Virus genome (UHGV): UHGV-0014911
From: a virus
Reading direction: 5' to 3' (one strand)
DNA: 40,159 nucleotides
Part shown: piece after piece, positions 1,780-40,159 of the stretch
Numbering within the stretch: position 1 is the first letter of the stretch
Layout: every line of letters begins with the position of its first letter
Translations under genes and position numbers: made by a program
Notes under the pieces: generated by a model
Seen by the model: only the letters and a program-made list of their open reading frames with translations
The model's database searches: none
What the model was told of the DNA's origin: nothing

Positions 1780-2913
1780 ATGAATTATGAAAAATATCAT
1801 AGCACAAACAGAAGCAAGGGTTTGCGAACCTTCTGCTACTTAATTTATTATGTGCAGGTGATTTTTAATGTGATGAAGTGTTTTATGACTCGCGGAAACT
1901 TTGATTTTATAAACTCTAACGTGGTTTTCTCAGAAGCCGATAAGTCATTGTGGATTGATCTCATTAACACCGATTGTATTTGGTATGATATGATAATTAA
2001 TCCTCCTGATGATATAAGAACAAATAAGATAATAAAGAACTATCTCAGAATTATGGAAAAATATACGAGGGAAAGCTGTGAAAAGAGATTTATTTATTTC
2101 TTAGGTTCAAGAAAAAAAGTGAGGTTTTCAACCAAGAAACAGCCTAGGTATAACCCATTCACAAAAAATATAGTATTCACTCTGTTGATTGGCAAAGAAG
2201 AGCGAAAGCTTCGGATAAAATATTCCTTTTGCACGTTTACGCAGAATGGGGTAGTGAAGGTAACTCCAAATGTTAGAGTAACTGAGAAGTTTCTCTACAT
2301 TGAATATGAAAATGGCAATTTATGTGTGATGTCAGTTCATGATTTCGTAAACGGACATTATATTGATTTAGGAATTCATACAGAAGTGCATTACGTAGGA
2401 TATACACGTCATCCGCATCGGCGCCCTGTTGATTTTATTCACCGTGGCTTATCAAAGATGCTGTATAGCGTTTCAAATGACGATAATGATTTTTTTGTTT
2501 GTTTTAGTATATTTAATCCAAGGATTATATCTCTGAATAATAAATGTAATGTGGTCTTTAATATTTCAAATTCTCTACTGGATGAAATTGATGTTGATAA
2601 TGAGGGGAGAATTATTGAAAACTGCTTAATACGTTACTTTGATCCTAAGCTTCAAGATGATGACAAGGAAAGTAAAAGGTCAGATTTAAATAAAATGTTT
2701 ATGGACCTGGTGGAAAATAAAAAAATTAAAAAAATATACGTTAATTTTCAATATGAAAGGAATAATGAGTATTTCTGCTTTTACTCTAAAGTTGTTCCGC
2801 CGAAATTTCATCATTTCTTTGTGTTGGATTTTTCTGATGGCAAGATAAATATTGATAGAGACCAGGATATGATGACTCAGATGGCATTGTGCATGGGGTA
2901 TTATAATTATTAA
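1780..2913 (+). CDS. Hypothetical protein, AT-rich orphan cargo gene; start codon uncertain (alternative ATG at 1873)
   Basis: 377-codon open frame in visibly AT-rich DNA with Lys/Asn/Ile/Phe-rich composition, in sharp contrast to the flanking phage genes. No motif recognised by eye. It occupies the integrase-adjacent slot where related phages carry conversion or defence cargo. Confidence 0.5.
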   Translation: MNYEKYHSTNRSKGLRTFCYLIYYVQVIFNVMKCFMTRGNFDFINSNVVFSEADKSLWIDLINTDCIWYDMIINPPDDIRTNKIIKNYLRIMEKYTRESCEKRFIYFLGSRKKVRFSTKKQPRYNPFTKNIVFTLLIGKEERKLRIKYSFCTFTQNGVVKVTPNVRVTEKFLYIEYENGNLCVMSVHDFVNGHYIDLGIHTEVHYVGYTRHPHRRPVDFIHRGLSKMLYSVSNDDNDFFVCFSIFNPRIISLNNKCNVVFNISNSLLDEIDVDNEGRIIENCLIRYFDPKLQDDDKESKRSDLNKMFMDLVENKKIKKIYVNFQYERNNEYFCFYSKVVPPKFHHFFVLDFSDGKINIDRDQDMMTQMALCMGYYNY

Positions 2914-3122
2914 TATTTCGCCTGATGCCAACTCAAAATCTTTTTTGTCGCATCCATTGTGGATTAATATTCAGAGGTAAGGGGTATCTGCGGAATTTAT
3001 ATTTTGCAGGATGAGCATACAATACATGATATAACATCTGTTTTTGGCACAGAGCATATAGTCAGATTATGTTTAGTTCTGTGCCATAGATGGATATTAT
3101 CTCACCTCTTGGCTAACTCTCA

Positions 3123-3317
3123 TTACTCAATAACTCCAGCAAATCTGTATATTTTGCGTGATGCCCATTTATTTGGGCAGGATTTAATATCAGGATCTGG
3201 AAAATCTGGCCTGTATTTCTGGCCTGTCCTCCTGTTTACGCTGTTCCAGCGAAGCACCGTCGATATTGAAACGCCACAGAATTCGGCGACTTGTTTTGTT
3301 GTCATTAAGTTGCTCAT
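3123..3317 (-). CDS. AlpA-family small DNA-binding protein (excisionase/regulator-like)
   Basis: 64 aa with RBS GGAGG 7 nt upstream of the ATG at 3317. Pattern HTH ... TVLRW ... YRPDFPDP ... W resembles the AlpA/Xis-like family typical of P4-type integrase modules. Confidence 0.55.
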   Translation of the reverse strand: MSNLMTTKQVAEFCGVSISTVLRWNSVNRRTGQKYRPDFPDPDIKSCPNKWASRKIYRFAGVIE

Positions 3318-4840: not shown

Positions 4841-4905
4841 AATAAGTCCTCACTATATTAAGATATTCAGTGATGAGATAAATAATCAGTTAATTAAGAA
4901 CGATA

Positions 4906-30568: not shown

Positions 30569-30667
30569 TGTACAAAATGATTAATGTGTTTTTGTCTGGC
30601 ATAATTTGGGTTTTCAACTTTAAGTAGTTAATATAATCACTCCTTACAAATGATTGAAGGGATGATT

Positions 30668-31162
30668 ATGCGTATCTTTGTGTTTTTTATATCTGCACTT
30701 TTATCTTTTAACTTGGCAGCGGAAGAGTGTAAGTTCAGCTTTAATGAGTCAGAATTAATCTCTTCTATAGGTATTGCACCAGTTAAGCAAGAGATAGTAA
30801 AGGATGAAGGAATAACTAAGCGTCAATATGAATTCAGGAGAGAATTGTCTTTTGAAGAAATGCTTGGCGATGATGCTGATGAAAAATATGAGCCGCAGTT
30901 TTATATATCTGTTTATAATCCATCATGTCCACAAAAGGTTATTATTTGGTTTTTCAAAGACAATAAAAACACACAAGCTTTAAGTAATGAGGTCCTTGCT
31001 GGTAGAGCATTCAAGTATTTAACTGGTGTTAATGAAAGTATTTTTGAAAATAAAATGAAAAAGTTTTCAAAGGTACAGTCATTTGAATCCTTTGATGAAA
31101 GGACGGACTCTAAATTTATAAAGAGTGGTAATGTTTATTCCATTGATGTTCAACTCAGATAG
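30668..31162 (+). CDS. Secreted hypothetical protein encoded by an AT-rich moron inside the tail operon
   Basis: Start placed at the ATG at 30668. N-terminal signal peptide MRIFVFFISALLSFNLAAEE, AT-rich DNA, TATAAT box about 30 bp upstream, hairpin plus T run downstream (about 31184-31245). Confidence 0.6.
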   Translation: MRIFVFFISALLSFNLAAEECKFSFNESELISSIGIAPVKQEIVKDEGITKRQYEFRRELSFEEMLGDDADEKYEPQFYISVYNPSCPQKVIIWFFKDNKNTQALSNEVLAGRAFKYLTGVNESIFENKMKKFSKVQSFESFDERTDSKFIKSGNVYSIDVQLR

Positions 31163-36253: not shown

Positions 36254-37012
36254 ATGCATCGTATAGACACGAAAACCGCGCAGAAGGATAAGTTCGGCGC
36301 GGGTAAGAACGGTTTTACCCGTGGTAACCCCCAGACCGGCACGCCAGCCACCGATCTGGATGATGACTACTTTGACATGTTGCAGGAGGAGCTTTGCAGC
36401 GTGGTGGAGGCATCCGGTGCCAGCCTGGAGAAGGGGCGGCACGACCAGTTGCTTACCGCGCTTCGTGCGCTGCTGTTAAGTCGCAAGAATCCGTTTGGCG
36501 ATATCAAATCGGATGGCACGGTGAAAACAGCTCTCGAAAACCTTGGTTTGGGAGAAACGATAAATAAAGCCTCCGGAGCTATGCAGAAATCGGCTAATGG
36601 AGCTGATATTTCTGATGTATCAGCCTTCCGAAATGCGCTCCAGTTAGGGACCGCTGCAACACGAGATGTTGGAGCAGATAATGCCTCGAAGTTACTGGAT
36701 TTAGACAGCTTCAGGTCAATGATGTCAGGTAATGGCTACATCTACATTCCATGCATTGCGACGACAGGAAACCCGGTGAAACTTATGTTGCAGTGGGGAA
36801 CGGTGGCAACACAAAAGGGAGCTGATGCTGGATATGCCTTACCATTTGCTTTTCCCTATGCAGGCTTGTTTGCGACCGGAAACCGTGGAACATCTGGCTA
36901 CAATGCCGCGATGAATGTGCGTATTGCCAGCAGAACGCATATCAGTATTCAGAACTGGTCGCCATCCGGAGAGGGCACCGAAGATTGTTGTTTTATCGCG
37001 TTGGGGTATTAA
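36254..37012 (+). CDS. Tail fiber protein
   Basis: 252 aa; conserved fiber N-terminus ([36 protein letters not shown]) with a variable C-terminal domain; RBS GGAG. Confidence 0.85.
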
Positions 37013-37014
37013 GA

Positions 37015-37449
37015 ATGAATAAATTTTATAAAGGATCTTTCTATCCGGAAGCTCTGAAAGAGGTATATATCAACGCTGGCTCATGGCCTGAAAACGGCGT
37101 TGATGTTGATGATGAAACAATGGCAATTTACACGAGCGTAGCGCCAAAAGGTAAAATTCTGGGGGCAGATAAAGACGGTAATCCTACATGGCTGGATATT
37201 CCTCCCCCGAACCATGAAGAGTTAATCCGGATAGCAGAAAACGAACAGAAGAGGCTTCTAACCCATGCTGATGCTGTAATGCTCGACTGGCGAACTGAGT
37301 TGATGCTGGGTGAAATAAGCGACGCCAACAAAGCTAAACTGTCGGCGTGGATGGCTTATAAAAACGAAGTTAAGGCGATTGATGCGACAACCGCTCCCGA
37401 GCATGTTAACTGGCCGGTTCCTCCGGATGGTGGGGCCATCAGGTATTAG
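37015..37449 (+). CDS. Tail fiber assembly protein (Tfa chaperone)
   Basis: Start placed at the ATG at 37015. Typical Tfa C-terminus (LSAWMAYKNEVKAIDATTAPEHVNWPVPPDGG). Confidence 0.85.
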   Translation: MNKFYKGSFYPEALKEVYINAGSWPENGVDVDDETMAIYTSVAPKGKILGADKDGNPTWLDIPPPNHEELIRIAENEQKRLLTHADAVMLDWRTELMLGEISDANKAKLSAWMAYKNEVKAIDATTAPEHVNWPVPPDGGAIRY

Positions 37450-37661
37450 ATGCGTTTGGCCTGTCAATATGCATTAAAATTGATGTAGTACAGATAGTGT
37501 GAGGGACAACCCCTTATTTAGTGATTTTCTTCTTCCCTACACGATTGTGTAGGGATAGAGGTTTAATAAAAGCCGGAACCGTTAATTATTGTCGACGCTC
37601 AAATTGGTTATGTAACTTAATCTATTGTGTTGTTTTTTTTTGAACTTAATCCAATTAGATT

Positions 37662-38745
37662 CTATAATTTTGATAGTGGTGACGGTCTTTTTTTTATCAG
37701 CTTGGTTAAATTTCTATATGCAATTTCAGATCTTAACCCACTAACTCCAGTATAAGATGTCATTGTTTTTCTTAACTTATTATTGAAGTGTGGAGATTGA
37801 TATTTGCGTAGAACATCCATAATGTCTTTTATATCACAGGAGTCAGCCACTATATCAAAATCACGATATACATTACCATTTTGTTCAGGAATAATAATGG
37901 TTGGTTTGTACGCTTCTATAGACTCAAGTGCAGCAGTACTTCCTGATGTTAGGACAATATCAGCTTCACTTAGTGCCTCGATGAAAGTTTTGTTTTTGTC
38001 AGATAATTTAACGCTATTGTCTAATAGGGGTGAATATATATCAATGTGTTCTGGATGTGGTCGTAATATAACGTTATAACTCTTCTGTTGTAAACATTTT
38101 ACAATATCTCTAACTATTTTAGTTGGTACTGTACTTTGTAGGGCAAAAAGAAATGATAATTGTCCTGTTTTAATTTTTATTTCTATTTCTCTTGCTGTTG
38201 TGTTATAATGCTGTGCTGTGCTGTGCTGTGCTGTGCTGTGCTGTGCTGTTATCTAGTTTTGGAAGTCCAAGACTTATTACCCTATTTCTAAATTTTTCGT
38301 TGAATTTATTAATAAAAGCCTCGCCAAACACACCGAAGTAATCAAAGCAATCAAAGTTATTCTCATATCCTTCCCAGTTTTGATAAAATCCATGTTGAAG
38401 CCCAATGAAAATTGGACTTTTATAACTGTTATTCATGGCTTTCTTTAAATCTAATTCCGGACCTGCAACACAACTGGTCATCAAAACAGCATCATAATTA
38501 ACTGCATTTTTTGTAAAATCTAAAAGAACCTCTTCTTTTGTTCTGTTGACAAAATTAAAATTAGAATCAATTTTATCTACCAAAAGAATGTTTTCTTTAA
38601 TTTCCAGTAGTTTTCTGTGATTTGGATCGGATATTCTAGGGAAGAATATATAGTCACATATTCCTCCGTTCTTACGGATTTCATAAACTAAGGGAAGCCA
38701 GTTTTCTAAACATCTGTAAGTAAACGCAGTAAATAATATTCGCAT
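37662..38745 (-). pseudogene. AT-rich transferase-like cargo gene split into two reading frames at a pentanucleotide repeat (currently frameshifted; candidate phase-variable gene)
   Basis: The N-terminal segment (ATG at 38745, MRILFTAF...) runs into the repeat and stops at 38203. A second frame is open with no stop and no start codon from 38252 to 37662, spanning the repeat, and encodes ...ILRPHPEH ... IVLTSGSTAALESIEAYKPTIIIPE... The two frames meet exactly at the repeat. Confidence 0.7.
38210..38249. repeat. Perfect pentanucleotide microsatellite (GCTGT)x8 inside the coding sequence
   Basis: Eight uninterrupted GCTGT units on the plus strand, encoding (STAQH)n on the minus strand, located exactly where the frame breaks. 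Confidence 0.95.
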
Positions 38746-38784
38746 TGTTGTATGTTGTCCAATTGATAATAATGCATTCTTCTG

Positions 38785-38813
38785 ATTGTACAATGGTTTG
38801 TTGTTTGTTACAA
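38785..38813 (-). promoter_or_regulatory. Candidate sigma-70 promoter of the transferase-like gene (TTGTAA, 17-bp spacer, TACAAT)
   Basis: Read on the minus strand, about 40 nt upstream of the ATG at 38745; the -10 overlaps the palindrome ATTGTACAAT. Confidence 0.4.
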
Positions 38814-38896
38814 CAACGCTGCAGAGTTATAAGTTAGAATATGCTCGGGAGATTATTAGTGATAATTAAATCTGAATAGAAACCAAATCTTGTACG

Positions 38897-39209
38897 CCCA
38901 AGAAAGGGATAAAACTTCTCAGTTTGACGGATAGCATCGATACGAGTACGCCTATGGGCAGATTCTTCTTTCATGTAATGGGCACTGGCAGAAATGGAAA
39001 GGGAGCTTATAATCGAACGCTACCGGGCAGGTTTAGAAGCTGCGCGCGCGGAAGGTCGCATTGGTGGCCGTAGACCAAAACTAACGGATGAGCAGTGGGC
39101 GCAGGCAGGGAGATTAATTGCTGCAGGGGAAACGCGTCAGCGCGTGGCAATAATTTACGATGTAGGAGTGTCAACACTATACCGAAAATTCCCTGTAGGC
39201 AGGGCTTAG
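38897..39209 (+). pseudogene. Remnant of a Gin/Pin/Hin-family serine DNA invertase (5'-truncated and internally frameshifted)
   Basis: One frame reads ...LSLTDSIDTSTPMGRFFFHVMG; a second frame, offset as if 2 bp were deleted, reads ALAEMERELIIERYRAGLEAARAEGRIGGRRPKLTDEQWAQAGRLIAAGETRQRVAIIYDVGVSTLYRKF. These match the invertase middle and C-terminal HTH; the N-terminal catalytic part is missing. Confidence 0.7.
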
Positions 39210-39258
39210 ACATGATGCAGGCCGCCGGTAAAGATTAATGCTGGCAGCCAGCACAACT

Positions 39259-39525
39259 TTAGAGCCCAACCTGGCGAACTGTCGGGAACTCAGACACCAG
39301 CCACATATCGGCCTCTTCAAACATATCCTCCAGCATGCGGTTCAGCTTTTCCCGATCGCTTTTGCTGGCATCGCTATTCAAGGCGTTTGCCTGCATCGGT
39401 TTCACCTTCACTTCGGCATAAGGGAAAATCTGATGCACTTGCTTCGTCAACTCAGCCAGGATGATCTCTCTGGCCCCCGCCAATCCTTCAACATTACGCT
39501 TGTCATAAACCAGTTCAACGAACAT
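39259..39525 (-). CDS. DinI-family protein (MsgA-like)
   Basis: 88 aa starting MFVELVYDKRN with an acidic C-terminal region; LexA boxes lie just upstream. Confidence 0.75.
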   Translation of the reverse strand: MFVELVYDKRNVEGLAGAREIILAELTKQVHQIFPYAEVKVKPMQANALNSDASKSDREKLNRMLEDMFEEADMWLVSEFPTVRQVGL

Positions 39526-39542
39526 ACAAGCCTCCGGAAAAA

Positions 39543-39586
39543 TACTGTGATTGTATACAGTAATTTTACTGTAAGAATAAACAGTG
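39543..39586. promoter_or_regulatory. Two tandem LexA (SOS) boxes upstream of the MsgA-like gene
   Basis: TACTGTgattgtatACAGTA (39543-39562) and TACTGTaagaataaACAGTG (39567-39586); both fit CTGT-N8-ACAG. Confidence 0.7.
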
Positions 39587-39644
39587 TCAAGGCGAGCTGA
39601 GTGCGAAGAGGTGATGTATTTTTGTTACCCTTAGTTACAAACAG

Positions 39645-39677
39645 AAAACCCCAGACCGTGAAATCTGGGGTTCTTTT
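39645..39677. terminator. Bidirectional Rho-independent terminator
   Basis: Hairpin CCCCAGA-ccgtgaaa-TCTGGGG flanked by A and T runs on either side; downstream of the dinI-like gene on the minus strand. Confidence 0.6.
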
Positions 39678-39910
39678 AAAGTGCACGTGCATATTTTTGT
39701 CTTTTCTCGGTCTGCCTACTGTCTGGTCAGTGTCCGTAAGTGGCTGTTTTTATTTCCTCTTTCCGGTTGCAGTCCTATCAAAAGTGGTGGAGCTGGCGGG
39801 AGTTGAAACCGCAGACACGTCGTATGCAAGAACGTGCTGCGGTTGGCTGGTAAGCTTCCGATAGTGCGAGTATTGAATGATTTCCAGCCGTTACTGATTT
39901 TACGTGCTAA

Positions 39911-40159
39911 TTAGTGAACAAACCACTCGTCAGCAGACTCCCGGGTATCTTTCAGAGTTTCCTGAACAAAAGTTTTAGCTGAATCTTTATCGGCGGTGCG
40001 CGTAACAGAAAGGCCATCGTTGCTGGTGGCTTTTACGATCACCTCTACATCGTCATAACGCTTACTGATGCGTCGAGTTAATTCTTCCTTTAACGCATCC
40101 ACAGCACCGTTTGGCATTTTAGTCATCTTCTCTTTGGCTATGCAGATCTCAATACGCAT
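39911..40159 (-). CDS. dinI: DinI-like DNA-damage-inducible protein
   Basis: 82 aa, MRIEICIAK ... ESADEWFVH, closely resembling E. coli DinI; the start codon sits at the last bases of the window. Confidence 0.8.

Follow-up and report, generated by a model that had tools for sequence, protein, structure and literature searches.

The closest described counterparts of the locus studied here are the invertible tail-fibre segments of Mu (G/Gin), P1 (C/Cin), e14 (P/Pin) and p15B (Min), in which a crossover site lies in the fibre gene at the boundary of its constant and variable parts and the genes follow the order fibre, tfa (tail fibre assembly gene), invertase. We analysed the virus genome UHGV-0014911, a stretch of 40,159 nucleotides (nt; hereafter the window), nearly all of which is one prophage. 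Its tail region has the crossover site in the same position and the same gene order. However, unlike in Mu, P1, e14 and p15B, the alternative fibre and tfa genes are gone from the window together with the right crossover site, the invertase has no catalytic domain, and the frameshifted stub that is left of this enzyme is a fossil. Between tfa and the stub lies an AT-rich foreign block with a single antisense gene, which we call the cargo gene. We consider it probable that a low-GC cargo of about 1.4 kb replaced the inversion module, that the gene it carries is phase-variable and that cargo and stub form a cassette.

The second relevant system is the gtrA-gtrB-gtrV operon of Shigella phage SfV, with the related gtr genes of SfI, SfII and SfIV. 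In SfV, gtrV-gtrB-gtrA fill the slot immediately behind tfa. They run on the opposite strand, a terminator is annotated at their tfa side, and attP and int come next. Since gtr genes occupy it, this slot is a recognised home of lysogenic-conversion genes in the lineage. The cargo gene resembles them in lineage, in its position after tfa, in its antisense orientation, in the stem-loop next to tfa and in the presumed role of changing the surface glycan of the lysogen. It differs in being one soluble enzyme of the glycosyltransferase (GT)-B fold instead of a three-gene membrane system, is unrelated to the Gtr proteins in sequence, is under the control of a repeat tract within the gene and is separated from the prophage end by the invertase stub. 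The components of a Gtr-type system (GtrA flippase, GtrB bactoprenol glucosyltransferase and serotype-specific membrane GtrC) are not what the block encodes.

Switching by simple sequence repeats (SSR) is known for contingency glycosyltransferase genes in Haemophilus, Neisseria and Campylobacter, e.g. lic2A, lgtA/C/G and cgtA (PMC2651432, and general knowledge). As in these loci, an intragenic non-triplet tract of polymorphic length shifts the frame of a sugar-transfer enzyme. In contrast to them, the cargo gene is prophage-borne, belongs to Enterobacteriaceae, where such loci are rare, and has its tract translated in a mid-gene linker and not near the 5' end. Phase-variable Type III mod genes with GCACA[n] tracts are found in Pasteurellaceae, streptococci and a lactobacillus (Atack et al. 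2018, PMC5909438), and the mod gene with the heptanucleotide CAGCGAC[n] of E. coli that make Shiga toxin is described as the first methyltransferase with phase variation from pathogenic E. coli (PMC5909438). Repeat-tract switching does, then, occur in E. coli. The cargo repeat unit, ACAGC, is a rotation of GCACA, with 4-48 copies in mod and 3-21 or more in the cargo gene, whereas the mod genes encode methyltransferases and not a GT-B enzyme, and lie in another genomic setting. The relation of the unit to GCACA also fits a low-GC origin of the cargo. Finally, Staphylococcus aureus TarP is a prophage-encoded cytoplasmic glycosyltransferase of the GT-A fold in a Gram-positive host. Like the presumed cargo enzyme, it is the product of a single prophage gene that re-decorates a surface polymer; it differs in fold and host and has no known repeat switching.

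The original prediction placed the block at the site of an invertible fibre segment, and alignment with relatives that retain such a segment bears this out. Over the baseplate genes through 36556, the window and E. coli FEX669 (L002) share 97.4% identity. Past this position FEX669 carries the variable part of the fibre, tfa, two inverted open reading frames (ORFs), a second crossover site, an intact invertase starting MLIGYVRVSTNDQ and a DinI gene, and its crossover pair consists of 26-nt inverted repeats at 3283-3308 and 4847-4872 of that locus. The window rejoins FEX669 only at invertase nt 259-260. E. coli strain 44 (L001) shows the classical layout of fibre, tfa, inverted tfa', inverted fibre C-terminus and intact invertase, and the window is 94.5% identical to it from 36532. 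The intact invertases of the two strains have 186-188 amino acids (aa).

The left crossover site survives in the window, where it is the single match at up to three mismatches (0 expected by chance), and the similarity changes from the FEX669 type to the strain-44 type exactly at this site. No alternative fibre or tfa' was detected in 37450-38900 by tblastn with these proteins. Of the arrangement that defines an invertible segment, two inverted crossover sites flanking alternative genes, the left site alone is present. The window has lost the alternative fibre end, the alternative tfa, the right crossover site and about 80 invertase codons. Since these four parts are gone, the inversion system is dead and the fibre fixed in one form. 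The comparison shows, at the level of sequence, a displacement of the invertible segment by the cargo block. A search for residual crossover sites near 37450-37560 and 38850-38900 had been suggested; we looked in both places and found none. A 14-nt inverted pair at 37394-37407 and 38838-38851 was rejected as a site, being at chance level and not conserved in Citrobacter braakii. The coordinates of all features are collected in Table 1.

Table 1. Features of the tail-fibre end of the window, with position, strand and supporting evidence
Feature	Position	Strand	Evidence or remark
Surviving left inversion crossover site (pix/gix-like), TCTCGAAAACCTTGGTTTGGGAGAAA, inside the fibre gene	36532..36557	+	Matches the inverted-repeat arms of L002 and L001
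AT-rich foreign block (cargo)	37465..38897		32% GC
Cargo gene, GT-B-fold sugar-nucleotide enzyme (glycosyltransferase-like), frameshifted OFF here	37662..38745	-	ATG at 38745, stop at 37662-37664
Pentanucleotide tract (GCTGT)8, (ACAGC)8 on the coding strand	38210..38249	-	Tandem Repeats Finder, 8.2 copies, 100% matches
Gin/Pin-family DNA invertase remnant, about residues 82-184	38900..39209	+	HTH_7, E 1.7e-15; Gin match
Candidate sigma-70 promoter of the cargo gene, TTGTAA-17-TACAAT	38785..38813	-	Consensus scan 9/12; about 40 nt upstream of the ATG
Perfect 9-bp hairpin TCCCTACAC-gatt-GTGTAGGGA in the cargo gene's 3' untranslated region	37534..37555	-	Fold compared with shuffled sequence
Tail fibre gene with gp53-like C-terminus	36254..37012	+	Pfam Gp53-like_C; PHROG tail fibre families
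Tail fibre assembly gene (tfa), chimera	37015..37449	+	Pfam Caudo_TAP, E 1.7e-29
DinI-family gene	39259..39525	-	Pfam DinI; synteny with FEX669 and CM194531

The tfa gene of the window is itself a hybrid. Its DNA is 94.5% identical to the strain-44 tfa up to 37205 and 79.5% identical to the strain-44 tfa' over 37174-37432. At the protein level, residues 1 to about 63 are of the tfa type and the remainder of the inverted tfa' type, with the change at a common WLDIPPP motif. The closest E. coli relatives (TF5 and EC7) part from the window at 37205, in the middle of tfa.

An invertase without its N-terminal catalytic region and with an internal frameshift had been predicted beside the block, and both lesions are there. 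The stub aligns by tblastn to residues 82-182 of the intact 186-aa invertase and, once the frameshift is corrected, matches residues 87-184 of Mu Gin (PDB 3UJ3) with an E value of 7e-41, which keeps it within the Gin/Pin/Hin family. Pfam recognises HTH_7 and only the last 22 positions (123-144) of the Resolvase profile. While the C-terminal HTH_7 and the Gin/Pin similarity of a serine invertase are preserved, the catalytic domain with the serine nucleophile (about Ser9/10) is missing, since homology begins only around codon 81-87, and the open frame is broken by a 2-nt deletion at about 38983. The right crossover site expected upstream is absent as well. We considered whether the stub could be a retained helix-turn-helix (HTH) regulator. 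Its 71-aa ORF (38994-39209) is intact in E. coli, but the C. braakii copy is further frameshifted and the idea is unsupported.

The foreign composition of the block was confirmed by a two-boundary likelihood fit, which placed it at 37465-38895 with a GC content of 0.324, compared with 0.47-0.50 on the immediate flanks and 0.58 in the baseplate genes. This agrees with the AT-rich foreign DNA expected after the fibre and assembly genes. A sensitive blastn search gave no match to the block in 5,426 complete E. coli genomes. The cargo had no match in GenBank phages and PLSDB plasmids (tblastn), or in IMG/VR and the JGI metagenomes, and the GTDB species representatives contain distant relatives only (26-39% identity). 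The block is thus an insert of foreign composition between conserved phage genes and absent from close relatives, as is typical of a moron. An Rfam scan of 37000-40159 gave nothing above threshold. A 12-mer in common with SfV (ACCGTTAATTAT) was discarded because its local alignment was no better than that of shuffled sequence.

The cargo gene is divided by its repeat tract into an N-terminal frame (38745-38203) and a C-terminal frame (38207-37662). The tract encodes STAQH units in the linker between the two domains of the protein, as an insertion right after an invariant PKLD motif that is not present in distant homologues, and the structural model has its lowest internal confidence here. When the copy number n is divisible by 3 the frame is open (tested for n = 6, 9 and 12; 357 aa at n = 6 and 362 aa at n = 9) and the full protein has 1 to 7 STAQH units in its linker; over tracts of 3, 6, 9, 12 or 21 units its length is 357-382 aa. 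When it is not, as with the 8 copies of the window, translation ends within 2-13 codons.

Natural alleles follow this logic. The protein cluster at 90% identity contains 16 E. coli sequences with flanks that are identical or differ by one residue, and with tract lengths of n = 4, 5, 6, 8, 10, 11, 12, 13, 16 and 21. Their products are 175-195 aa long in the OFF state and 357, 372, 382 or 413 aa in the ON state; among the informative alleles 5 are ON and 7 OFF. The C. braakii alleles (85% identical) have n = 3, 11 and at least 15, and in one assembly a gap interrupts the sequence at the tract. Comparison of E. coli with C. braakii gave an overall ratio of nonsynonymous to synonymous substitution rates (dN/dS) of 0.23, with values of 0.09 in the N half and 0.35 in the C half. 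The gene is therefore maintained by selection despite frequent OFF states. A non-triplet intragenic unit, ON/OFF length polymorphism and purifying selection outside the tract are together what is expected of an SSR contingency locus and, by these comparative criteria, the cargo gene qualifies as one. The tract would then switch within populations by slipped-strand mispairing.

One could also read the cargo gene as a decaying pseudogene and the tract as a mutational scar. The gene is out of frame in the window and also in three or more further sources whose tract has n = 8, and the window allele has a premature TAG 15 codons before the stop of other alleles. Nevertheless, in-frame and otherwise identical alleles exist (n = 6, 12, 21), and in E. 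coli and C. braakii alike neither half carries any lesion other than the terminal TAG. The dN/dS values given above speak for constraint in both halves, about a third of the alleles are ON, as expected of a free-running 5-nt switch, and one ON allele has an interrupted tract. We therefore regard a pseudogene as very unlikely and retain the reading of a repeat-driven switch. The TAG at 37662-37664 replaces a TGG (Trp) found in several other E. coli alleles and in C. braakii. Other alleles read on to the ancestral stop at 37617-37619, and the 15 C-terminal residues removed by the TAG are poorly modelled. The interrupted allele, on ENA scaffold PICK22-1 (L003), is ON and has six units of which two are substituted (GCTTT GCTGT TCTGT GCTGT GCTGT GCTGT); this could reflect either stabilisation in the ON state or noise in the metagenome assembly.

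A transferase-like gene had been predicted in the block, and the minus-strand cargo gene fits this description. Its AlphaFold model, based on a 33-homologue alignment with invariant HPEH and GST motifs, reached a predicted local distance difference test (pLDDT) score of 91 and a predicted template modelling (pTM) score of 0.88. It shows two Rossmann-like domains, a linker and a C-terminal helix crossing back, the arrangement of the GT-B fold. The structural scores for the glycosyltransferase and 2-epimerase classes were close. "Transferase-like" is the best reading, with epimerase chemistry as a possibility.

The family is small, with 93 clusters in 1.84 billion representatives (exhaustive HMMER scan), and the nearest relative outside the enterobacteria is 47% identical. 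Its Pfam match is to DUF6716 (PF20471), annotated as putative glycosyltransferase, and remains below the cut-off, although many homologues at 30-35% identity have a precomputed PF20471 match. The NCBIfam matches, also below cut-off, are to the surface carbohydrate biosynthesis protein family TIGR04396 and to the BFO_1060 glycosyltransferase. Homologues lie in ABC-transporter polysaccharide loci together with GT2/GT4 transferases, acyltransferase-3 genes, Wza-like exporters and ABC-2 permeases. Phage-associated homologues (L008 8001-9011 and L021 8001-9602) are 39-44% identical. One phage homologue is antisense between a large tail-fibre-like gene and the lysozyme of an unrelated phage, and the homologue in Caballeronia glebae adjoins a Caudo_TAP fragment and an acyltransferase-3 gene.

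Most likely, the cargo protein is a cytoplasmic glycosyltransferase that alters the surface polysaccharide of the lysogen. Other candidates are a 2-epimerase acting on nucleotide sugars, a sugar transferase that modifies DNA and a defence protein; the closeness of the structural class scores leaves room for the first of these. However, a profile search of PDB sequences returned GT1-type enzymes only, though weakly (SpnG, E 0.014), and the NCBIfam matches are transferase or surface-carbohydrate families. The neighbours of the homologues are those of polysaccharide loci. PADLOC gave no match that would indicate defence, and PHROGs gave no match either. Moreover, an epimerase by itself would bring E. 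coli little, as WecB is already present there. Taken together, these points make a function outside surface glycosyl transfer distinctly unlikely, and we keep the glycosyltransferase as the preferred assignment.

The cargo gene would be expressed in the lysogen from its own promoter, for which the site listed in Table 1 is the candidate. At its other end, in the 3' untranslated region, lies a perfect hairpin. The original prediction had noted it with an 8-bp stem at 37535-37554, near the left boundary of the block. The hairpin does exist, with a stem one base pair longer, but it is not a relic of crossover. The true crossover site lies about 1 kb to its left. From the left edge of the stretch common to the window and C. 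braakii the hairpin is 55 nt inward, and its distance downstream from the cargo stop codons is 60-110 nt. About 12 distinct perfect stems of at least 8 bp occur in the window against about 4 expected, so that the existence of the hairpin alone says little. Its fold z-score is -4.2 to -4.8 (-4.8 for the minus strand), while the opposite strand folds no better than shuffled sequence. In the C. braakii stem there is one compensatory change from C-G to U-A and one change from A-U to G-U, which pairs in the cargo-sense RNA alone. Comparison of these two sequences is suggestive of a stem at the 3' end of the cargo transcript that stabilises it or brings about its termination. A canonical intrinsic terminator was rejected, as the hairpin was absent from the terminator scan and has no T-run.

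Its nearness to the left edge of the shared block could also mark it as a relic recombination site of the block's insertion. Against this, the hairpin is unlike the crossover sites of these phages, lies inside the conserved block and not at its edge, and has changed in C. braakii in ways that keep pairing in the cargo-sense RNA alone. Perfect 8-bp hairpins are common in the window, and in SfV a terminator is annotated at the corresponding position, behind gtrV. We consider a recombination relic extremely unlikely and favour the transcript stem.

Six loci with available DNA carry the cargo gene (five in E. coli including the window and one in C. braakii), and the adjoining invertase is truncated in all six, so that nowhere was the cargo gene found beside an intact invertase. 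The recovered E. coli loci are all the same prophage at prfC with identical junctions. In the C. braakii locus (L004), the cargo adjoins a different tail module (Collar-domain fibre, Phage_Wedge1 and Sheath_initiator). The two have in common the region corresponding to window positions 37480 to about 39196, at 86-88% identity, and the junction of cargo and invertase (...AAACCAAATCTTGTACGCCCAAGAAAGGGATAAAAC...) is the same in E. coli and C. braakii. Judging by this comparison, the right junction is ancestral and shared. Since the same junction occurs next to an unrelated tail module, cargo and stub appear to move as a cassette, and the conserved 3' stub of the invertase probably served as one homology arm for the transfer.

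The stubs have diverged in the meantime. Where E. coli has the 2-nt deletion, C. braakii has a deletion of 1 nt, plus a later one of 1 nt; therefore, the stubs share the truncation but decayed separately since. In the 3' third of the stub, C. braakii resembles the strain-44 type of invertase and the window the FEX669 type, which points to recombination inside the stub. On the left side, C. braakii retains a 5'-truncated inverted tfa' converging on tfa, together with the left crossover site in the fibre gene. The window has no such tfa' remnant on its left and has the chimeric tfa instead. A single-event history of the left junction was rejected, because the tfa chimera and the differing left junctions fit no one simple path. 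With less than even confidence, we propose that cargo and stub are a self-contained, horizontally mobile cassette that spreads between unrelated myovirus tail modules in different enterobacterial genera, via homologous recombination at the widely conserved invertase and assembly genes, and gives lysogens a reversible, repeat-driven change of a surface glycan, with a tract of the GCACA type known from phase-variable methyltransferases of low-GC bacteria. In the literature searched we found no SSR contingency locus for glycan modification on an enterobacterial prophage.

A different order of events has to be considered, in which the inversion module decayed first and the cargo landed later in a dead locus, so that nothing was replaced. 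E. coli TF5 (L025, 5154-5573) has the same fibre and tfa allele without cargo, and a deletion there has fused the inverted tfa', at its 3' end, with the 3' part of another invertase. The inversion module of TF5 has thus decayed independently. Other E. coli genomes contain HTH-only invertase stubs truncated at other points (H74-H76), and the left cargo junction is not the same in E. coli and C. braakii. On the other hand, no cargo-free locus with the same truncation point (about codon 81) was present among the comparators examined. The identity of the cargo/stub junction in two genera means that it is old and moves with the cargo. Moreover, in C. braakii the cargo is still bordered by a piece of the inverted tfa', which is what one would expect had it cut into a segment not yet lost. 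On balance we find two separate events rather unlikely and prefer replacement of the segment by the cargo.

The following course would account for these observations. Ancestors of the prophage carried a Gin/Pin-type invertible tail-fibre segment. A cargo of about 1.4 kb would have taken the place of the alternative fibre, the alternative tfa, the right crossover site and the first 80 or so invertase codons, leaving the inversion switch dead and the fibre locked in one form. The single antisense gene would encode a cytoplasmic GT-B enzyme that modifies the surface polysaccharide of the lysogen, slipped-strand mispairing at (ACAGC)n would toggle its expression, with full-length protein when n is divisible by 3, and the hairpin may act as the 3' stem of its transcript. 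The cassette would have recombined into at least two unrelated tail modules, those of E. coli and C. braakii. The order of these steps is what we infer from the comparisons. That one switch was replaced by another, as had been proposed, holds for position. It does not hold for function, since inversion governs the host range of the virion and the tract an enzyme expressed in the lysogen.

Several observations weigh against this account. E. coli and C. braakii do not have the same left junction, so that the replacement was perhaps not a single clean event; because cargo-free decay of the invertase is seen in TF5, deletion and insertion were possibly separate. The enzyme reaches no curated family threshold, with 15.6 bits for DUF6716 (cut-off 27 bits) and 33.9 bits for TIGR04396 (cut-off 125 bits). 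Promoter-like sites, the candidate included, occur in the region at chance frequency, and the hairpin has no T-run on either strand that would provide a U-tract. Four independent sources all have n = 8, which means either that extreme instability is not a property of the tract or that a single clone was sampled several times. Since repeat tracts can be collapsed in short-read assembly (PMC5909438), the allele counts are approximate.

The prophage is of the SfV/e14 type with a Mu-like baseplate and is integrated in the 5' end of prfC. Its tail region contains Mu-type baseplate genes (gp44-48 equivalents, YmfQ/gp48), and the baseplate genes and fibre start are 96-98% identical to those of the Shigella phages SfV, SfI, SfII and SfIV. 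They are followed by the gp53-like fibre, tfa, the AT-rich block, the invertase stub and DinI. The constant part of the fibre gene stops at the crossover site. In intact relatives, a DinI gene also lies 3' of the invertase and thus marks the return of synteny on the right. Positions 1-160 of the window comprise the prfC promoter and the first 24 or so codons, with a tyrosine integrase next at 386-1621. In related contigs a complete prfC lies just past two DinI genes at the right end, and the gene is presumably restored by the prophage.

The right arm of the prophage is a mosaic with a fossil att core. A 41-bp stretch (39772-39812) is 88% identical to the 3' end of ssrA (tmRNA), positions 38925-39812 match, at 93% identity, the right arm of a prophage remnant integrated in ssrA (CM194531), and from 39805 onward the window matches a dusA-integrated prophage (TF5). 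At the opposite end, a second AT-rich island (GC 0.32 over 2001-3000) directly after the integrase contains a 377-aa ORF (1780-2913, plus strand), which has a strong match to PHROG 7779 (unknown function) and no Pfam or PADLOC match; it may be another accessory gene. A 170-aa ORF (30650-31162, plus strand) with a match to PHROG 8976 (unknown function) and none in Pfam sits in a stretch of lower GC (0.43) between the tape-measure and DNA-circularisation genes.

The literature we searched contains no description of the cargo gene, of the DUF6716 family or of this arrangement. Each component of the locus is already known, and the combination is new. It shows that the post-fibre slot of SfV/e14-type prophages is reusable and can hold an inversion switch, a gtr operon or a repeat-switched enzyme, with intact and decayed relatives at hand for comparison. 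It is a rare case of SSR phase variation for E. coli and Citrobacter, where inversion and Dam-methylation switches dominate. Moreover, it points to an uncharacterised small GT-B family whose members recur in polysaccharide loci and beside the tail-fibre genes of phages. Should lipopolysaccharide or capsule be altered by the enzyme, this would be relevant to serotyping, to the host range of phages used in therapy and to superinfection exclusion.

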